This document shows, in pieces, positions 1 to 62,507 of a DNA stretch of 64,000 nucleotides. This DNA comes from Escherichia coli (GTDB taxonomy: Bacteria > Pseudomonadota > Gammaproteobacteria > Enterobacterales > Enterobacteriaceae), in the NCBI RefSeq assembly GCF_009931435.1, contig NZ_CP043414.1. One strand, written 5' to 3'. The position numbers were made by a program, and so were the translations under genes. The notes under the pieces were generated by a model. That model searched no databases and was not told the DNA's origin. It was given only the letters and a program-made list of their open reading frames with translations. Within the stretch, counting starts at the first letter, position 1, and every line of letters begins with the position of its first letter.

Positions 1-1197
1 TGGCGCAAGCTCCAGTTGCGGATCGTGAATCAAAATGGCGTTTTCCAGATCCAGACGCCAGGCGCGTGGGTTCAGGTTATTGCCGGTGAGCAACATCCAC
101 TTATCATCAACCCACATCCCTTTCAGGTGATAGGTGTTGTCGTCATCTTTCCATAACCGAACCACTAACTGGTCAGTGTTGACGTAATACTGCAAACGGC
201 TCAGGAAACGACGCAGATTGATCTCATAGAGATAAGGCAGTGCGCCAATTATCTTGAAAGGCTCATCTTCCGGAATGTAGAAGTCATTCGCAGTTTTATC
301 GCCAACAATAATTTCGACCTTTTTCCCTTCGCGCAGTAACTGGATGATATTACGCACAAGGATTGCTGGCAGGTTGAAATATGGTGTGCAAATGGTTAGT
401 TTCTGCTCGGCACAAGGCATAAGATGGAAAATGGTCTTGTTCAACAGACTCGATTTCCCCAGGCCCACCAATGGCGTAACAGAAAGCTGATCGTTATCAG
501 CATCACCCTGGAAATGATAAGCGGCATCACGCAGCTCCTGGCGGAACAGACGAATGTCATTCTTGATTTCCGGGCTTTTTGGGCGATTAACATCATCCAA
601 ACGATTAACGCCGCGACCATTCATTATATTCTGTGTAACCCATTCGAACATAATGTCTGACATCTTGCGGTTACGAATCAGATGATAACGGTCGTAGCGG
701 TATTTATCGTGCTGATGCAGATAAACATCGTTCAAGCTGGCACCGCTATAAAGAACGCTATCGTCGATGATAAAGCCTTTAAAGTGCAGAACACCAAGGG
801 CCTCACGGGTATTGATTGGAACGCCATAAACTGGAACATCTACGCCCGGATTTTCCTGCGCCATGCGGCAGTACCAGTCAGCGTTAGTGTTAGATGCCGC
901 AGCGCCAATGCGTCCACGTTGTGCACGATGCCAGTCGACCAGCACCCGCACATCCAGTTCCGGACGCTGCCGTTTAGCCTCATACAACGCGTTCAGAATG
1001 CCTTTGCCACCGTCATCCTGTTCGAGATACAGGGCGACAATGCAAATGCGCTGCTTCGCGCTGGCTATTTTTTCCAGCAGCGTCTCCCGGAAGTCGGCGG
1101 GAGCGTAAAAGAAATCGACATCATCAACTGATTGAGAAATCTTGGGTAGTTGGGCAAGGTGTTGTTGATGTTTATTACGCTTAAATTTTGACAACAT
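1..1197 (-). CDS. pssA: CDP-diacylglycerol--serine O-phosphatidyltransferase (phosphatidylserine synthase); partial, C-terminal part lies beyond window start
   Basis: Minus-strand frame open from ATG (revcomp at 1195-1197) to window edge; translation begins MLSKFKRNKHQQHLAQLPKISQSVDD and continues through two HKG-type phospholipase-D-like motifs; synteny downstream of patZ. Confidence 0.9.
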   Translation of the reverse strand, partial: MLSKFKRNKHQQHLAQLPKISQSVDDVDFFYAPADFRETLLEKIASAKQRICIVALYLEQDDGGKGILNALYEAKRQRPELDVRVLVDWHRAQRGRIGAAASNTNADWYCRMAQENPGVDVPVYGVPINTREALGVLHFKGFIIDDSVLYSGASLNDVYLHQHDKYRYDRYHLIRNRKMSDIMFEWVTQNIMNGRGVNRLDDVNRPKSPEIKNDIRLFRQELRDAAYHFQGDADNDQLSVTPLVGLGKSSLLNKTIFHLMPCAEQKLTICTPYFNLPAILVRNIIQLLREGKKVEIIVGDKTANDFYIPEDEPFKIIGALPYLYEINLRRFLSRLQYYVNTDQLVVRLWKDDDNTYHLKGMWVDDKWMLLTGNNLNPRAWRLDLENAILIHDPQLELAP

Positions 1198-1310
1198 CAC
1201 AGTGCATTTCTTCTCTGTTCATTGAAGGGTCCTCTGTGCAATGCAGACGACATAAGCGGGCAATAATAACACCAGTCCCGATTAAGTGGTCAACATTTCC
1301 AGTACCTTAC

Positions 1311-3971
1311 TCATGATTCCTCGCGCTGGGCAAGATTTAGCGTAAGCCCAACGATCCCCTCTTCGAGCTGGATATCAACGTTAAACCCGAGCTTGCGGGC
1401 CAGCGCCACCATGCCACGATTGTTTGGCATCGTAATACCATTCAGACGTTGCAGTCCGTGATCTCGCGTATAGGTAATCAACTTTTCCATTAAGCGTCGA
1501 CCTAAGCCTAACCCTTTGAGATCCGAGCGAACCAGCACGGCAAATTCGGCATCGATGTTATCAGGGTCGGAGATCGCACGCGTGACGCCGAGGATCTCTT
1601 CCGTTTGATCAATACGTCGTACCGCTACAAATGCCATTTCCCGATCGTAGTCGATCTGCGTCATGTTGGCTAAATCTTCATGGGTAAATTCGTTGATCTC
1701 GCTAAAGTAGCGGTAATAAAGATCTTCTTTGGTGACTCGCGAAATGAACTGCTGAAGTTGTGGCTCATCTTCTGGCAAAATCGGGCGGAACAAGCAGCGT
1801 TCACCGTTTTTCAATTCTACCCATTCTTCCAGCTGATGAGGATAAGGGCGGACTGCCAGGCGACTCTCGTTATCGCCTTCAAACGGAGCGATATCCAGCG
1901 TGACATCAAGCGCGGTAAATTCATTGCCGGAAGCCAGCAAAGGATGAATATCCAGCCTCTGAATCTCCGGACAATCGACAATCAAGTTAGAAACCTGCAC
2001 CAGTAACTGGCTTAATCCCGCCACATCCAGCGGGCGTAGCGCACTACGTGCACGAATCTTTTTACTTTTGATCCCCTGAATGACCAGATAACGTGCCAGG
2101 TTCATGTTCAGCGGCGGTAGTGCGACGACGGCTTGATCTTCAGGACGCCACTCCACACCGCCTTCGCCCAGCATGATCAACGGTCCGAAAACCGGATCGT
2201 GCTCAACCACTACTCGCAACTCCTGAGCGCCAGCACGGTTAGCCATACTTTGTACCAACAGGCCGTGGATACACGCCTGCGGCCAGGCCATTTTTACGCG
2301 ATCGAAAATAGCATTTGCGGCTTGCTGGACTTCATTGGCTGTACGCAAGTAGAGCATGACGCCCTGAACTTCTGATTTATGTGGAATATCCGGCGAGCGT
2401 AATTTTAGTGCCACCGGATAACCAATCTGTTCGGCAATATGCACAGCCTCGGTGCTGTCAGTGGCAATCCAGGTGGGAAGTGTGTTCATGCCGTACGCTT
2501 GCAGGATAGGCTGAACTTCATGGGTATCGAGCGACGTTGCCCCTTCGACAATGGCCTGTTGCAACAGAAGATGCGCTTCTGCGGTATTAGAGGTCAGATT
2601 GCTGGGCAACGCCGGCGTTTCGCGTAGTTGCTTCTGATTACGCCGGTACTCCACCATATGCATAAAAGCGGTGATGGTTCCTTCCGGGGTGCGGTAGGTC
2701 GGCAGCCCGGCTTCGCTGAATAAACGTCGTGCCTCTTGCGAGGAGTGCTCGCCGCACCAGTTCGTCAGCAGAGAAACATACTTGCTGCGGGGATGATGCT
2801 TTACCGCTTCAATTAATGCATGCGCGCTTTCTGTTGCGGGAGCTGCGGCGCTGGGCGAATGAATAACCATCAGCGCATCAAAATCCTGACTGTGGAGCAG
2901 AATATCCAGCGTTTTAATATAATGCTCACTGCTGGCGTCATCGCGAAGATCGAGTGGGTTAGAGATTGCCACATGTTCTGGCAGTGCATCGCGCAATTTC
3001 TGGCAGGTTTCTTCACTGAGCGTAGCCAGCTTGCCATTGCGTGACCATAAGGCATCCAGCGCCAGTGCGGCAGGTGCTGCACCGTTGCTGATAATCATCA
3101 GCCGCTCTCCACGTAGCGGGCGCATATGGCTAAGGGTTTCGACTGCCGAAAACAGCTCGTGGGTATCCTGCACTCGCAACAAACCGGCGCGCTGAATAGC
3201 TGCATCCCAAGCAGGATCCATTCCTGCCGTGGTGTTCAGTAGTCGTTGCGCCGCCGGGCTACGTCCGCTTTTAATCACCAGAATCGGTTTATTACGTGAG
3301 GCGCTACGTGCAGCCGAAACAAAACGTCGCGCATCACTTAATTGTTCGAGGTAGAGCAGGATTGCACTAGTTTTGCTGTCGCGCGCCAGATAATCGAGCA
3401 ATTCATCAACGTCGATATCCAGACTGTCGCCGAGAGCAATAAAGTAGGAAAAGCCCATTTCCCGCTGTTGTGCCCAGTCGAGGATGGTATTGGAGACGGC
3501 GGCAGACTGCGAAATAAACGCCAGTTTGCCGCGTTTAATCGGTACAGGCGAAAAGCTGGCATTCAGGCCTTGCCAGGGGGCCAGTAATCCCAGACTGTTT
3601 GGCCCCAGCAGACGCATGTTATGGCGCAGGGCGCAGGCGCGGAGATCTTCGTGTTGCGATGCCGGGGCGGAAAGAATAATGCAGGTTTTACAGCCTTTCT
3701 CGCCGAGCTCTTCCAGAAGAGTAAGATTGCGGCTGGCATTGGTACATAAAACCGCAAGATCGGGTGTAAAGGGCAGGCTGGCAATATCCGGCCAGGCCAA
3801 CACACCCAACACCGCTTTCCAGGCAGGCGTCACCGGGAGTACCGGCCCGTTAAATCCCCCCGCCAGCAGGTTACGCATCATCAGGTAACCTGCGCGATTG
3901 GGTTTCATCGATGCGCCAATTACCGCAATCGATTTTGGTCGCAGTAGTGCTTCCAGTCCTCGCTGACTCAT
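1311..3971 (-). CDS. patZ: Protein lysine acetyltransferase: NDP-forming acyl-CoA synthetase-like region fused to C-terminal GNAT domain
   Basis: 886-aa ORF; N-terminal CoA-binding/succinyl-CoA-synthetase-like segment, C-terminal GNAT motif KGLGLGRRLM; length and synteny match yfiQ/pka. Confidence 0.9.
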   Translation of the reverse strand: MSQRGLEALLRPKSIAVIGASMKPNRAGYLMMRNLLAGGFNGPVLPVTPAWKAVLGVLAWPDIASLPFTPDLAVLCTNASRNLTLLEELGEKGCKTCIILSAPASQHEDLRACALRHNMRLLGPNSLGLLAPWQGLNASFSPVPIKRGKLAFISQSAAVSNTILDWAQQREMGFSYFIALGDSLDIDVDELLDYLARDSKTSAILLYLEQLSDARRFVSAARSASRNKPILVIKSGRSPAAQRLLNTTAGMDPAWDAAIQRAGLLRVQDTHELFSAVETLSHMRPLRGERLMIISNGAAPAALALDALWSRNGKLATLSEETCQKLRDALPEHVAISNPLDLRDDASSEHYIKTLDILLHSQDFDALMVIHSPSAAAPATESAHALIEAVKHHPRSKYVSLLTNWCGEHSSQEARRLFSEAGLPTYRTPEGTITAFMHMVEYRRNQKQLRETPALPSNLTSNTAEAHLLLQQAIVEGATSLDTHEVQPILQAYGMNTLPTWIATDSTEAVHIAEQIGYPVALKLRSPDIPHKSEVQGVMLYLRTANEVQQAANAIFDRVKMAWPQACIHGLLVQSMANRAGAQELRVVVEHDPVFGPLIMLGEGGVEWRPEDQAVVALPPLNMNLARYLVIQGIKSKKIRARSALRPLDVAGLSQLLVQVSNLIVDCPEIQRLDIHPLLASGNEFTALDVTLDIAPFEGDNESRLAVRPYPHQLEEWVELKNGERCLFRPILPEDEPQLQQFISRVTKEDLYYRYFSEINEFTHEDLANMTQIDYDREMAFVAVRRIDQTEEILGVTRAISDPDNIDAEFAVLVRSDLKGLGLGRRLMEKLITYTRDHGLQRLNGITMPNNRGMVALARKLGFNVDIQLEEGIVGLTLNLAQREES

Positions 3972-4002
3972 ATCGGTCTCCCGCAGAAGTGACCGAATGA
4001 TT

Positions 4003-4701
4003 TTAAACGCTTTCTAACTGTTCTGCTGTGATGCTACCCAGATGTTGCGTTTTTCCTGCCAGATAGCGTGTTTTAAAGCGGGTGAAATACTCGCCTAGAC
4101 CTGCCGCCGCTCCGGTATCGCCGGCCATATCTAACAGTGCGATGGCAACTTCGGCAGTGCAGTATTGGCCTTCAGCCTGGGCTTCACGCAGGCGATAGGC
4201 AGAAAGCCGGGAAAGATCGACGGAAATGACGGGAAGATTATCCAGATACGGACTTTTACGAAACATCTTGCGAGCTTCCGGCCAGGTACCATCGAGCATG
4301 ATAAACAGCGGTGGCTTACCAGCAGGTGGTGTAAAAATCACTTCCCGTTGCTCATCAGCATACGAGGCGGGAAAGACCACCATTGGCTGATAATCCGGGT
4401 TTTGTACCAGAGCCAGCAAATCCTGCGAGGGTTCGGTACGGGACCATTGAAACGCGACGGTATTTGGCAAGATATCGGCAATCAGACGCCCGGTGTTACT
4501 GGGCTTCATTGGCTCGGTGTCGAACATCAGCAAACAAAAGCGACTTTTAGCTTCCGCTGGAGTAATTGTCGAACAGAGACATAATTTCTCTGGCAAAAGA
4601 CAGCGTTGGCAGCGACGAACGCGATTACCGCGGGCAAGAAAAGGACGTGTTGCGCGCGCAATACGCTCGGCGCGTAACTGGAGAACAGCGTTTTCGGTCA
4701 T
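4003..4701 (-). CDS. tapT: DTW-domain protein, tRNA-uridine aminocarboxypropyltransferase family
   Basis: ORF track gives 254 aa; start moved to ATG at 4699-4701 (MTENAVLQLRAERIA, 232 aa); DTW motif LDGTWPEA and CxxC pairs present. Confidence 0.8.
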   Translation of the reverse strand: MTENAVLQLRAERIARATRPFLARGNRVRRCQRCLLPEKLCLCSTITPAEAKSRFCLLMFDTEPMKPSNTGRLIADILPNTVAFQWSRTEPSQDLLALVQNPDYQPMVVFPASYADEQREVIFTPPAGKPPLFIMLDGTWPEARKMFRKSPYLDNLPVISVDLSRLSAYRLREAQAEGQYCTAEVAIALLDMAGDTGAAAGLGEYFTRFKTRYLAGKTQHLGSITAEQLESV

Positions 4702-4769
4702 AAGAGAGCGTCGAAAAAACGCCATTGTCGCAGAGGAGAAAACGGGGCACAAGATGCACCCCGACAAGA

Positions 4770-5189
4770 TTAAAGCGATTCGTTCAGCCAGCTATCGAAA
4801 GGTGCTTTTGGTACTGCGCCATTAAGCATGTCGACAACCTGACCGTTTTTGAAAATCATGATTGTCGGAATGCTACGAATACCAAAGCGGCTGCTTAATT
4901 CACGTTCAGCTTCGGTATTCACTTTCACAAAGCGCACTTTACCGCTACGTTCTTGCGCAACATCTTCAAAAATTGGTGCGAAATTACGGCAGGGGCCGCA
5001 CCACGGCGCCCAGAAGTCGATCACCACAGGCAGATCATCTTTCAGCAATTTATCGAGCGTTTCACCGGTCGCATTAATCACCTCTCCGTCAAATAAGTCG
5101 TGACCGCAGCGTCCGCATTTTGCCGCATCTTCGATCCGATCGTCGGGAATGCGATTGATGGCCTGACAATGGGTACAAACGGTATTCAT
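4770..5189 (-). CDS. trxC: Thioredoxin 2 with N-terminal zinc-finger extension
   Basis: 139 aa; N-terminal CTHCQ...CGRCGH double CxxC, WCGPC active site. Confidence 0.92.
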
Positions 5190-5395
5190 AACTAACCTCG
5201 GGATGAGTAAGGAGACTTATCGGCAACGACGCCGGTATGTTTCTAATATGTTACATATTATCGGGGACATTGTTCCAGACAACAATCTGTTTTATTCAAT
5301 AGGTATGATAGTCGCAGGCTTTGGTACGAAATCATGGCGAACCGCGCGCACTTCGGGTAATCTGCGCGCTTCGCGCAGCGCTGGTGGAGAAAAGC

Positions 5396-6433
5396 ATGAA
5401 CGATGAGATGAAAGGTAAAAGCGGCAAGGTCAAAGTGATGTATGTCCGCAGTGATGATGATTCTGATAAACGTACCCATAACCCGCGTACCGGGAAAGGG
5501 GGCGGGCGTCCAGGAAAATCTCGTGCCGACGGTGGCCGTCGCCCCGCCCGCGATGACAAACAAAGTCAGCCCCGTGACCGCAAGTGGGAAGAGTCTCCGT
5601 GGCGCACGGTTTCCCGCGCGCCGGGTGATGAGACGCCGGAAAAGGCCGATCACGGTGGCATCAGTGGTAAAAGTTTTATTGATCCGGAAGTGTTGCGTCG
5701 TCAGCGTGCGGAAGAAACCCGCGTCTACGGCGAAAACGCCTGTCAGGCACTGTTCCAGAGCCGCCCCGAAGCGATTGTTCGCGCCTGGTTTATTCAGAGC
5801 GTAACGCCACGTTTTAAAGAAGCATTGCGCTGGATGGCGGCAAACCGCAAAGCGTATCATGTGGTGGATGAAGCGGAACTGACCAAAGCGTCAGGCACGG
5901 AACATCACGGCGGCGTTTGCTTCCTGATCAAAAAGCGTAACGGTACAACCGTGCAGCAGTGGGTAAGTCAGGCAGGTGCGCAGGATTGTGTACTGGCACT
6001 GGAAAACGAATCTAACCCGCATAACCTGGGTGGCATGATGCGCAGTTGCGCGCACTTCGGCGTGAAAGGCGTCGTGGTGCAGGATGCGGCGTTGCTGGAA
6101 TCCGGTGCGGCTATCCGTACCGCAGAAGGCGGTGCAGAGCATGTTCAGCCGATTACTGGCGACAACATTGTTAACGTGCTGGATGACTTCCGCCAGGCGG
6201 GTTACACCGTAGTGACCACCTCCAGCGAGCAGGGTAAACCGCTGTTCAAAACCAGTCTGCCAGAGAAAATGGTGCTAGTGCTGGGTCAGGAATATGAAGG
6301 GTTACCGGATGCCGCACGCGATCCGAACGATTTGCGCGTGAAGATTGATGGTACGGGCAACGTTGCCGGGCTAAATATCTCTGTTGCAACCGGCGTTTTG
6401 CTTGGTGAATGGTGGCGTCAGAATAAAGCCTGA
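5396..6433 (+). CDS. yfiF: SpoU/TrmH-family RNA 2'-O-methyltransferase with basic low-complexity N-terminal extension
   Basis: ORF track 370 aa; start moved to ATG 5396 ([14 protein letters not shown], 345 aa); C-terminal SpoU-like region, N-terminal K/R/G/D-rich ~95 aa. Confidence 0.8.
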
Positions 6434-6480
6434 TAAATCAGCCGGGTGGCAACGCTGCCATCCGGCGTTTTCCTGCAAAT

Positions 6481-7170
6481 TTACTCACTTTCTGCCGGTA
6501 ATACTGGCATCCAGTCAATCGGTTTCTCGCCACGTTGTTCCAGCCACTGATTTGCCAGCACAAAATGGTTGCAGCCAAAGAACCCACGATGCGCCGAAAG
6601 CGGTGATGGATGCGGCGCTTTCAGTATGTGATGGCGTTGTTTATCAATAATCGCCCCTTTCTTCTGTGCATGTGATCCCCACAACAAAAACACCACGCCT
6701 TCGCGATGCTGGTTGATCAGGCTGATGACTTTATCGGTGAAGGTCTCCCAGCCGAGGCTAGCGTGGGAATGCGCCTGACCTGCGCGAACCGTCAACACAG
6801 TATTGAGTAGCAGAACGCCCTGACGCGCCCAGCTTTCAAGATAACCATGATTAGGGCGGGTGAAACCGGGAATAGTATTTTCCAGCTCTTTATACATATT
6901 CAGCAGTGACGGCGGTGTCGCAATGCCGGGGCGAACGGAAAATGCCAGACCATGCGCCTGTCCCGGTCCGTGATAAGGATCCTGGCCGAGAATCACCACT
7001 TTAACGTCACCCAACTCTGTAAAGCGGAACGCGTTAAAGACATCCTTTTGTGGCGGATAGATAGTGACGCCGGCCTGCCGCTCGCTGGCGACGGTCTGTA
7101 GGGTATTAAGAAAATAGGGTTGCTGCTTCTCTTCAGCCAGCACGTCATGCCAGGTTAATTCGTTTGCCAT
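6481..7170 (-). CDS. ung: Uracil-DNA glycosylase
   Basis: 229 aa; [18 protein letters not shown] and [14 protein letters not shown] motifs. Confidence 0.95.
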
Positions 7171-19589: not shown

Positions 19590-19734
19590 TAGCTTATCTT
19601 CGTTCACGTTGTCGCCGTTATGGCGACAACGTGAATTATTTATGAGATAAATCCCCCGTGGCTAACGACATCCCCCGTCGTTGTGTATAGAATATTCCCC
19701 CGAAGTTTAAGGTTGGCACCTCCAGGTTGCCACG

Positions 19735-19828
19735 GCACACGAAACAGCGTTGGTCCCCATATACCGGTAAACTGAAACTGCAGCGAAGCAGTTAGCAGAG
19801 CCATGTATATCAGGTCTGTTTCGTGTGC
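19735..19828 (+). promoter_or_regulatory. rnc 5' leader long-range stem-loop (candidate RNase III autoregulatory site)
   Basis: Perfect 13-nt inverted repeat GCACACGAAACAG (19735-19747) / CTGTTTCGTGTGC (19816-19828) enclosing smaller stems, ending 34 nt upstream of rnc ATG. Confidence 0.5.
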
Positions 19829-19831
19829 TGA

Positions 19832-21444
<1,613 letters not shown>

Positions 21445-21446
21445 TT

Positions 21447-21575
21447 AGCATACTCTATGACTTTCGAGGTGCAGGAAGGCGGCAAGACCGTGAATCCCTG
21501 GGAGCTTACTAAAGTAAGTGACCAGGGTGAACGGGTGCAGCCAAGGCACCTGCAACTTGAAAGGCGACGAGTATG
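21447..21575. repeat. ERIC (IRU) enterobacterial repetitive intergenic consensus element
   Basis: ~129-bp imperfect palindrome; core GTGAATCCCTGGGAGCTTACTAAAGTAAGTGACCAGGGTGAACG matches the ERIC1R/ERIC2 primer region; fills the whole era-recO spacer. Confidence 0.7.
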
Positions 21576-22304
21576 ATGGAAGGCTGGCAGCGCGCATTCG
21601 TATTGCATAGTCGCCCGTGGAGCGAAACCAGCCTGATGCTGGACGTCTTCACGGAGGAATCGGGTCGCGTGCGTCTGGTTGCCAAAGGCGCACGCTCTAA
21701 ACGCTCTACTCTGAAAGGTGCATTACAGCCCTTCACTCCTCTCTTGCTACGTTTTGGCGGGCGTGGCGAAGTCAAAACGCTGCGCAGTGCTGAAGCTGTC
21801 TCGCTGGCGCTGCCATTAAGCGGTATCACCCTTTACAGTGGTTTGTACATTAACGAACTTCTCTCCCGCGTGCTGGAATACGAGACGCGCTTCTCTGAAC
21901 TCTTTTTCGATTACTTGCACTGCATTCAGTCTCTTGCAGGTGCCACTGGTACGCCAGAACCCGCGCTGCGCCGCTTTGAACTGGCACTGCTCGGGCATCT
22001 GGGCTATGGCGTCAATTTTACCCATTGTGCGGGTAGCGGCGAGCCGGTAGATGACACCATGACGTATCGTTATCGCGAAGAAAAAGGGTTTATCGCAAGT
22101 GTCGTTATCGATAATAAAACGTTCACCGGAAGGCAGTTAAAAGCGTTAAACGCGCGGGAATTTCCTGACGCAGACACACTGCGCGCCGCGAAACGCTTTA
22201 CCCGCATGGCGCTAAAGCCGTATCTTGGCGGTAAACCATTAAAGAGCAGGGAACTGTTCCGGCAGTTTATGCCTAAGCGAACGGTGAAAACACATTATGA
22301 ATGA
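21576..22304 (+). CDS. recO: DNA repair protein RecO
   Basis: 242 aa from ATG 21576 ([20 protein letters not shown]); ORF track starts one codon earlier. Confidence 0.9.
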
Positions 22305-23427: not shown

Positions 23428-23452
23428 AATAATATCGTTCTCTTTAAAAAGT

Positions 23453-23490
23453 AAAACCCCCGAACTGGTAAGGAACGGGGGTTTTACTTT
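23453..23490 (+). terminator. Intrinsic terminator after acpS (palindromic, possibly bidirectional)
   Basis: AAAACCCCCGAACTGGTAAGGAACGGGGGTTTTACTTT: 5-bp G/C stem flanked by A-run and T-run. Confidence 0.65.
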
Positions 23491-23846
23491 ACAACTTTAA
23501 TTTTGTGCAGCACACGATTCCAACAAAAATGATTATGGATCAATTTAGTTATCCTGTACAAGCAACTTGCAATCTTTAGCATAAAAACTCGAGCCTTTAC
23601 GAAGAAATCGATATTGATGAAAAGATTAACGTGACCGCTTTTTGATAAGTACATTAGAATCGGCGTCGTTATTGGATATTTTGCTGTGTTCTACGCCATG
23701 CCACTGAATTCCCCCATTGAAACGAGTGGTGTCGTCAAAGCTCTGGTGTGGAGTGCGGCACTCGATTCCAATAACTCGCACGTTCAGTTTTGGGGAGATG
23801 TAAGGGCTAATCTGAACGGCTGCATTCCTTGTTTAAGGAAAAACGA

Positions 23847-24436: not shown

Positions 24437-25285
24437 TCAAACCAGTTTTTTCACCAGCGCTTCACTATGACGAATACGTTCTGGTGCCAGTTCCAGATCC
24501 TGCTGAATCAGCGCAATGAACAGTAAATCCGTTAACATTCCCTGAGCGTGACAAGCAGAGATTGCAGCACTGTTTGTCGCTTGTTCTTCGGCAATGGTAT
24601 ACAGGCAGTGAGAAGCGCGTTGTTGCAGGGCATTGGGAGTAAAGCCGGTAATTGCCATCACTTTTCCGCCCACTCGCAGCATCTCATCTGCCGCCAGGTT
24701 TAACTCGCGTCGTACACCAGTGTAGGAAATGGCTAATAACAGATCGTCAGGGGACGACGCCTGGACTGTGGCGAGTAGCGCATGCATATCGCGCACTGCG
24801 GCGGCATTGAAGCCAATCTTCATCAGCTTCCAGGCAAAGTTTTGCGCCACCAGACCCGAAGCGCCAATACCGGTCAGAATTATCCGCCGCGCAGAGCGCA
24901 ACATTGCCACGCCTTCATGCAGTTTCTCTTCACTATTAACGTTTAGCGTTGCGTACATGGCGGCAGTATTTTCTTTAATCAGTTTTTCGCCGACCAGCCG
25001 TAACGGATCATCACCACGGATTTGGTTATGAATGGGCACAGAAGGGGATTCCGGCTGGCTTGCCAGCGCTTCACTCAACGCCAACTTCAATGCCGGAAAA
25101 CCTTTATAGCCGAGTTTTTGCGCGAACTTCACGACGCTGGACTGACTGACTCCGGCTTCGTTGGCCAGTTGCTGAGAGCTTAAATGGCGCGCCGTATCAG
25201 GTTGTAGTAGCAAATAGTCCGCCAGTTTTTTATCACTCTGGGCAAGCCCCTGGTAACGCTGACGGATACGAAGTAAGCCGTTCAT
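24437..25285 (-). CDS. yfhH: RpiR/MurR-family transcriptional regulator (HTH + SIS domain)
   Basis: Start at ATG 25285 (MNGLLRIRQRYQGLAQSDKKLADYLL, 282 aa); SIS domain in C-terminal half. Confidence 0.85.
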   Translation of the reverse strand: MNGLLRIRQRYQGLAQSDKKLADYLLLQPDTARHLSSQQLANEAGVSQSSVVKFAQKLGYKGFPALKLALSEALASQPESPSVPIHNQIRGDDPLRLVGEKLIKENTAAMYATLNVNSEEKLHEGVAMLRSARRIILTGIGASGLVAQNFAWKLMKIGFNAAAVRDMHALLATVQASSPDDLLLAISYTGVRRELNLAADEMLRVGGKVMAITGFTPNALQQRASHCLYTIAEEQATNSAAISACHAQGMLTDLLFIALIQQDLELAPERIRHSEALVKKLV

Positions 25286-62267: not shown

Positions 62268-62271
62268 TTTA

Positions 62272-62400
62272 ACCGTCCTGTTTCGTGTTGCATCTGCGTT
62301 GACTGCACATACTCACTCCGGTCACTTACTTATGTAAGCTCCCGGAGATTCGTAAGTTTGTCAACTTGCTGAAACCCGAAACAGTTAGGTTAAAGATAAC
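62272..62400. repeat. ERIC-like imperfect palindrome in the iscR-iscS spacer
   Basis: Core CACTCCGGTCACTTACTTATGTAAGCTCCCGGAGATTC aligns with the ERIC central region and with the reverse complement of the element at 21447-21575; flanking arms partly complementary. Confidence 0.6.
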
Positions 62401-62507
62401 AAGATATTAGAATCAGGCCGGGGCGTATCGCGCTCCGTAAACACGGTCGTACATCCAGCCGGTAGCCTGGTTCCTTGCATTGAGTGATGTACGGAGTTTA
62501 TAGAGCA

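Follow-up and report, generated by a model that had tools for sequence, protein, structure and literature searches.

The window analysed here is a stretch of 64,000 nt of Escherichia coli DNA (contig NZ_CP043414.1 of assembly GCF_009931435.1). According to its ORF list and the annotation, the genes lepB-rnc-era-recO-pdxJ-acpS lie on the + strand. The era gene, an ORF that encodes the GTPase Era and is named era in an identical source record, extends from 20539 to 21444 (+) and ends with a TAA stop codon (21442-21444). The recO gene (21576-22304, +) was taken to start at 21576, following the annotation of the identical RefSeq record E. coli 2020CK-00188 (NZ_ABACVG020000001.1), and the resulting N-terminus, MEGWQ, was found in all 80 species among the matches listed in the interspecies survey described below. 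The two genes are separated by a spacer of 131 nt (21445-21575). The K-12-type spacer has 11 nt, GAGTAACTCCG; the original prediction on this DNA had given about 11 bp, which was correct. The autoregulatory RNase III leader of the rnc operon, rncO, is intact at 19702-19916 (Rfam, 255.6 bits), and no promoter-like or terminator-like site was predicted within 21200-21800. Two further features are found downstream of this gene cluster. The antitoxin sRNA ohsC (101.7 bits) is encoded at 23448-23524 on the - strand, adjacent to the type I toxin gene shoB, both downstream of acpS. From about position 24600 onward (6652-7131 in locus L001), the source genome has a tyrosine recombinase/integrase gene after yfhL, in the place of the yfhH of K-12-like genomes; this gene may mark the edge of an integrated element.

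ERIC elements, also named IRU, were reportedly described by Sharples and Lloyd in 1990, by Hulton et al. in 1991, and by Wilson and Sharp in 2006. Their presence or absence is well known to vary from strain to strain, which underlies ERIC-PCR typing. As a reference, the 127-nt E. coli ERIC consensus of Delihas 2007 was used (PMC2759123, Table 1a, citing Wilson & Sharp 2006), where the name RU-1 is used for ERIC. Positions 21449-21575 on the + strand aligned without any gap, including the central core, with the reverse complement of the entire consensus, with 96 of 127 positions identical, and 98 of 127 positions matched the Salmonella SeRU-1 copy. The + strand, i.e. the sense strand of the mRNA, is thus in reverse complement orientation to the published consensus, and the element also aligns with paralogous ERIC copies. 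The inverted repeat formed by the ERIC1R and ERIC2 primer regions is present as GTGAATCCCTGGGAGCTTAC..AAGTAAGTGACCAGGGTGAAC and departs from the consensus by paired changes. As in other members of the family, the unit is an imperfect palindrome, for which a single long stem-loop is predicted; it lies between genes, namely era and recO of the rnc operon, and is presumably co-transcribed; its presence depends on the strain; and it belongs to a multicopy family, the era-recO query having 11 matching places in the median E. coli genome and 16 in that of the source. It differs from typical family members in three respects: its divergence from the E. coli consensus amounts to 24%, it directly adjoins a start codon such that its right arm is the entire leader of the downstream gene, and it has been kept at a single locus across many genera. 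The element at 21449-21575 is, with near certainty, a full-length ERIC, as had been claimed from the sequence alone. One detail of that claim had to be adjusted: the palindrome is indeed imperfect, but its length is 127 nt instead of about 129 nt. The element fills the spacer, as claimed, with 127 of the 131 nt; TTAG at 21445-21448 (+) does not belong to the ERIC. These four bases are the sole non-ERIC bases of the spacer, and their columns have a mean pairwise identity of 0.38 across species.

A strict search with a 44-nt ERIC core, allowing up to three mismatches, yielded no match, because the era-recO copy is too diverged and has more than three mismatches to that query. Rfam contains no ERIC model, and none of its families scored at or above the gathering threshold on the element; the single match was to V_AS5, with 23 bits against a threshold of 96. 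This sub-threshold match to a Vibrio antisense RNA covers 21453-21571 and spans the whole Rfam model, and the V_AS5 family itself may be a transcribed ERIC-like repeat of Vibrio. Inside the iscRSUA operon, the iscR-iscS spacer (62268-62483) contains a second full-length ERIC of the window (62268-62394), which immediately follows the stop codon of iscR. It matches the consensus at 92 of 127 positions without gaps and has the published orientation on the + strand. This copy is polymorphic as well: a query coverage of 80% or more was obtained for 490 of 5,424 E. coli genomes, and the others lack about 127 nt.

The era-recO element contains two pairs of inverted arms, 21449-21475 with 21549-21575 and 21496-21510 with 21513-21527, all given for the + strand. 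The left outer arm (21449-21475), located by an inverted-repeat search and by folding, begins with the basal helix strand CAUACUC (21449-21455), which starts 4 nt past the era stop codon. The inner pair, CCCTGGGAGCTTACT and AGTAAGTGACCAGGG, forms the central ERIC core together with the apical loop (21496-21527), and its differences from the consensus CCCCAGG/CTGGGG are paired, compensating changes. The right outer arm (21549-21575), CCTGCAACTTGAAAGGCGACGAGTATG, is the most conserved part of the element. It runs up to the recO start codon, the final ERIC base directly adjoining the ATG at 21576, and thus constitutes the recO 5' leader, as the original prediction had stated. The best Shine-Dalgarno-like match in this leader is the weak GAAAGG at 21559-21564 (-4.2 kcal/mol to the anti-SD), 11 nt before the ATG at 21576. 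The terminal TATG of the ERIC contributes an additional in-frame ATG (21573-21575), which was the recO start chosen by the ORF caller. As this codon is missing in some species, it is probably not the main start.

The folding free energy of the spacer RNA was calculated to be -63.7 kcal/mol, compared to -38.4 +/- 3.5 kcal/mol for 200 dinucleotide shuffles (z = -7.2), none of which was as stable. In the mRNA, the element is predicted to form a single long hairpin of about 50 base pairs, in line with the long transcript hairpin that had been anticipated. It lacks the GC-rich stem followed by a U-run that is typical of an intrinsic terminator, the next bases being GAUGGAAGG.

Next, we analyzed the distribution of the element within the species. 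Of 5,426 complete E. coli genomes, 5,425 had a match to a query of 1,131 nt with the element in its middle; the sampled matches covered 89% of the query in two pieces, i.e. these genomes are devoid of the element. The 131-nt spacer itself was found with at least 99% identity in exactly 15 of the 5,426 genomes, and 99.7% do not contain it, so that K-12 and most strains indeed lack the element, as the original prediction had it. In all other E. coli genomes the best match to the spacer was a paralogue with at most 90% identity, and the top paralogues were 81-83% identical. In all seven carriers inspected, including the source of the window, the element lies between era and recO. Positions 1-7000 of the window, 15-21 kb away, were used to characterize the genomic background. 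At this locus, 13 of the 14 other carriers were among the 16 nearest genomes, with 98.0-98.5% identity, compared to about 96% for most E. coli. Because the carriers cluster together at a distant locus, 14 of the 15 are assigned to a small divergent group of E. coli. The exceptional carrier is strain 06-00048, which has a mainstream-like background and a patch with the long allele of less than about 350 bp. Conversely, of the three non-carriers in the group, the two that were checked, 2017-02-2CC and MFDS1022581, contain the short allele. The flanks of era-recO in the carriers are mosaic. Three synonymous changes in codons 8-10 of recO (positions 21599, 21602, and 21603, +) are linked to the long allele within E. 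coli, these codons reading TTC GTA TTG instead of TTT GTC CTG; N96 is an exception to this linkage among the checked carriers. None of E. whittamii, E. albertii, and Escherichia sp. MOD1-EC7003 has these linked variants (C..AT).

The two spacers cannot be converted into one another in a simple way. TTAG plus the ERIC is not obtainable from GAGTAACTCCG by insertion, neither with nor without duplication of a TA. The termini of the element are CA-TAC...GTA-TG instead of TA-TAC...GTA-TA as in the consensus, and in a test for TA target duplication no empty site fitted the flanks of the long allele. The opposite direction was also considered, but neither precise excision at either TA nor deletion between short repeats yielded the 11-nt spacer under any scheme. 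As judged by their sequences, the long and the short spacer are two diverged alleles, which are apparently exchanged between backgrounds by homologous recombination. Mainstream E. coli has the 11-nt short allele, and the long allele survives in a small divergent group.

To extend the comparison beyond E. coli, one genome per species was searched with RecO as query, and the spacers were measured at the 80 Enterobacteriaceae loci (L012-L091) among the matches listed, a sample without E. fergusonii, E. marmotae, and E. ruysiae. The same element, with unchanged position and orientation, was found in E. whittamii (130 of 131 nt identical to the window), E. albertii (126 of 131), and Escherichia sp. 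MOD1-EC7003 (125 of 131). In 52 of the 80 species among the matches listed, which represent most of the Enterobacteriaceae genera sampled, the spacer contains the element as a full copy, with internal alterations, or as a remnant. These comprise 21 species with a full-length forward copy, five with a long copy, among them the 198-nt form that carries an internal insertion, three with an internally deleted copy, 19 with a right-arm remnant of 14-36 nt, typically ..AAGACGACGAGTATG directly before the ATG, two with a left-end remnant, and two with a copy in the opposite orientation. The remaining 28 species have short spacers of 6-12 nt without similarity to ERIC. Variants specific to a clade, such as GACGGCGGGTATG in the Citrobacter freundii group, occur in full copies and remnants alike, which indicates that the remnants are deletion products of full copies. 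In a rough gene tree the spacer states are interleaved within genera: 198 nt in K. michiganensis versus 11 nt in K. grimontii, 131 nt in Kluyvera intermedia versus 11 nt in K. cryocrescens, and 132 nt in C. braakii versus 11 nt in C. werkmanii. Motifs specific for the locus were considered as a proof of orthology and discarded, as the ends TATGG.TTTC / GAAAGACGACGAGTAT recur in paralogous ERICs, e.g. between ydiJ and ydiK and in a plasmid copy between ilvC and ilvY. Orthology between genera is thus not provable from sequence signatures; it would rest on position, orientation, and the remnants.

The survey led to several additional observations. Two loci, L044 (Enterobacteriaceae UBA3516) and L073 (RIT714), contain an ERIC in the reverse orientation with a different junction: the element directly follows the era stop codon, and 7-9 nt (AAGCATTA / AAGTATTG) are left before the ATG. 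If the TA is counted as a duplicated target, the spacer before insertion would have been 11 nt. These copies look like an independent insertion and indicate that repeated insertion into the era-recO spacer does occur. The 198-nt ERICs of Klebsiella oxytoca and K. michiganensis (L031, L048) and of Leclercia adecarboxylata (L082) have the same internal insertion of about 70 nt (GGACAAAACACAA.GTGTTTTGAACAGCGCTT...), in spite of the different genera; insertions within ERICs are said to have been described before, by Sharp in 1997. An identical 11-nt short spacer, GAATAACCCCG, was found in Citrobacter werkmanii (L021) and Kluyvera georgiana (L032), while the closest relatives of C. werkmanii carry ERICs or ERIC remnants; short alleles may be old, or may have been exchanged between genera. 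Lastly, among the matches listed, recO starts with GTG in nine of the 28 species with short spacers and in both species with left-end remnants, and with ATG in all 48 species with a forward ERIC right-arm leader and in both species with reverse copies. This pattern, with counts that ignore phylogeny, hints at different requirements for initiation.

Taken together, the spacer of the window is very probably an old, widely shared long allele and not a new insertion. The original prediction had proposed a lineage-specific insertion, and this part of it did not hold: the same element occupies the same site in E. albertii, E. whittamii, and MOD1-EC7003, it is represented in 52 of the 80 species listed, insertion or excision does not interconvert the alleles, and in E. 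coli changes in recO codons 8-10 accompany the long one. A recent transposition of an ERIC into the 11-nt E. coli spacer, uncoupling recO from era, would fit the restriction of the element to just 15 of 5,426 E. coli genomes, mostly of one divergent group, the view that ERICs are MITEs that insert at TA (PMC3184786), and the opposite-orientation copies in L044 and L073, which show that the spacer can be struck independently; yet it is highly improbable, because three other Escherichia species have the element in the identical position with 95-99% identity, with differences in the flanking genes of 5-8% overall and 18-27% at fourfold-degenerate sites, because the Escherichia copies share their junctions, because TTAG plus ERIC is not derivable from GAGTAACTCCG and travels with three linked synonymous recO differences, and because E. 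coli contains no close donor copy, the best paralogue being 81-83% identical.

The spacer could also have been gained recently by homologous recombination from a donor similar to E. whittamii or to a cryptic clade, instead of by vertical inheritance. The identity of 130 of 131 nt to E. whittamii would be in accord with such an introgression, and patches obviously move, as is seen from the mosaic flanks of the carriers, from strain 06-00048 with its small long-allele patch in a mainstream-like background, and from the short allele in the relatives 2017-02-2CC and MFDS1022581. However, the flanks of the window resemble E. coli as far as the borders of the element, which speaks against a simple introgression with E. 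whittamii-like flanks, and the adjacent 150-nt bins contain 9 and 6 differences to E. whittamii. Furthermore, the linked recO variants are missing in E. whittamii, E. albertii, and MOD1-EC7003, and the carriers cluster together at the distant locus, as vertical descent predicts. We regard a recent introgression as improbable, and the reading as an old long allele was retained.

How could a spacer of 131 nt influence the expression of recO? The Shine-Dalgarno match of recO is weak in both alleles: in the short K-12 allele it is AAGAG, which overlaps the era stop codon (-2.4 kcal/mol), and in the long allele it is the GAAAGG mentioned above (-4.2 kcal/mol). Weak motifs in both alleles fit a dependence of recO on era translation. 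In the free mRNA of the long allele, GAAAGG was predicted to be 83% paired and the ATG at 21573 to be 98% paired. A ribosome on the era stop codon was mimicked by masking 21427-21455 in the fold, an assumed footprint. Under these circumstances, the ATG at 21573 was predicted to be 94-98% unpaired and GACGAG to be 78% unpaired, while the SD-like GAAAGG was still paired in the model. Based on these predictions, the following mechanism can be envisaged. Initiation at recO would depend on translation of era in both alleles. In the long allele, the base of the hairpin would place the era stop codon, 4 nt before the helix, beside the recO start codon, directly after the helix, such that 127 nt are looped out and stop and start remain close. 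On terminating at the end of era, a ribosome would open the basal helix and thereby make the recO start region accessible. Because stop and start would be close in the folded RNA, coupling is expected to be preserved through the RNA structure and not abolished. The constrained folding thus argues against an uncoupling of recO from era, although it is a model, and structure-mediated coupling of the two genes is a tentative proposal that we consider possible, but not probable. Whatever the function is, it would seem dispensable or replaceable, because 28 of the 80 species listed and 99.7% of the E. coli genomes do not have the element.

The proposed arrangement resembles three known systems. In phage MS2-type coupling, long-range pairing masks a downstream start as long as the upstream cistron is not translated; similarly, the recO start region is predicted to pair with a sequence that the upstream ribosome would have to pass or cover, with the differences that the era-recO case is a prediction and that the masked segment is the basal 7-bp helix. 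REP/BIME stem-loops, which stabilize upstream mRNA, are likewise repeated palindromes between the cistrons of an operon and may allow for differential expression of the flanking genes; they belong to an unrelated sequence family, and the era-recO hairpin is far longer (127 nt versus about 35 nt). RNA hairpins of Yersinia ERICs alter the expression of neighbouring genes, as summarized in two articles (PMC3184786, PMC2267715, citing De Gregorio 2005). Both cases have an ERIC beside a stop codon inside an operon, a predicted hairpin, and ribosomes that can disturb its folding when they finish the upstream gene; the era-recO case differs in that the focus is on the downstream start codon and not on decay of the upstream mRNA, and in that its effect is solely predicted.

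In addition to a role in coupling, the hairpin might act as a barrier that slows 3'-5' decay or as a nuclease target, and in this way set the ratio of era to recO. In a more specific version, the hairpin would be cut by RNase III, which is encoded in the same operon, or would expose a site for RNase E; by such cleavage, the recO mRNA would be detached from that of rnc-era, and the operon would gain a second point of autoregulation. The long predicted helix and the existing autoregulation of the operon by RNase III at rncO (19702-19916) would be in agreement with this version, as would two points from one article (PMC3184786, citing De Gregorio 2002 and 2005), namely that transcripts of Neisseria MITEs are RNase III substrates and that Yersinia ERICs have been proposed to expose an RNase E site. 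However, with 8 + 6 bp and a mismatch, the longest unbroken stretch of the helix is short for a substrate of E. coli RNase III, and a nuclease target is about as improbable as the introgression discussed above.

Conservation of the spacer was compared with that of fourfold-degenerate sites in era and recO. Relative to the window, spacer identity and identity at fourfold-degenerate sites were 99.2% and 73% for E. whittamii, 96.2% and 74% for E. albertii, and 95.4% and 82% for MOD1-EC7003; for other genera, the values were 78-87% (Kosakonia 63-70%) and 47-54%. In every comparison, the element was far more conserved than the fourfold-degenerate sites of the flanking genes. The right outer arm had a conservation of 0.85-0.86, the left of 0.79. 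Short-patch gene flow between Escherichia species could add to the very high identities, and homogenization by paralogues does not explain the conservation, because the best E. coli paralogue is just 81-83% identical. The consensus hairpin was paired in 94% of the cells of 18 orthologous copies. Nine of 32 pairs were changed on both sides, a number reached by none of 500 shuffles, and slid controls were much lower. From these patterns, the helix appears to be maintained by compensatory base-pair changes.

Two opposing interpretations of this conservation have to be weighed. The element could be a neutral relic, i.e. tolerated junk, with its conservation due to gene flow or to a low mutation rate of hairpins and its right arm kept solely as the recO leader. 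Many lineages show its loss or erosion (28 short spacers and 24 partial ones among the 80 species listed), the Shine-Dalgarno match is weak in either allele, and RecO is generally known as a low-abundance, non-essential protein, all of which would be compatible with neutrality. We nevertheless consider neutrality somewhat unlikely, because the spacer is well above the conservation of fourfold-degenerate sites in every comparison and because the helix is apparently kept by compensatory changes. The excess of G-U over A-C cells on the sense strand, 65:16, points in the same direction but can only be taken as a hint, since this was the strand used for the structure prediction and the comparison is biased accordingly. 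At the other extreme, the ERIC could be a domesticated RNA element that has been under selection since before the genera of the Enterobacteriaceae split. Its right arm would have been exapted as the translation initiation region of recO, the hairpin would fold 127 nt aside for era ribosomes restarting at recO, processing by RNase III would be possible, and the long and short alleles would be a recombining trans-species polymorphism. This far-reaching version is unlikely, and slightly more so than neutrality. Between these extremes, the overall reading that we favour and regard as likely is that of an old ERIC long allele, swapped between backgrounds by homologous recombination, which would form a hairpin in the rnc-era-recO mRNA and allow coupling via structure.

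In a literature search, outside which the primary ERIC papers (De Gregorio 2005, Wilson & Sharp 2006) lay, no link of ERIC to recO or rnc was found. The era-recO element is an additional copy of a known repeat family, and for the biology of E. coli its importance is minor, as it is one more strain-variable ERIC copy. It is, however, part of a natural pair of alleles, with 11 nt versus 131 nt in front of a downstream gene that has almost no Shine-Dalgarno sequence, and this pair can be used to test the effect of a large hairpin between stop and start codon on translational coupling. For the ERIC family, the persistence of the element across genera, its conservation above the synonymous level, and the selective survival of its right arm bear on the old question of whether ERICs are selfish relics or have been recruited by their hosts.
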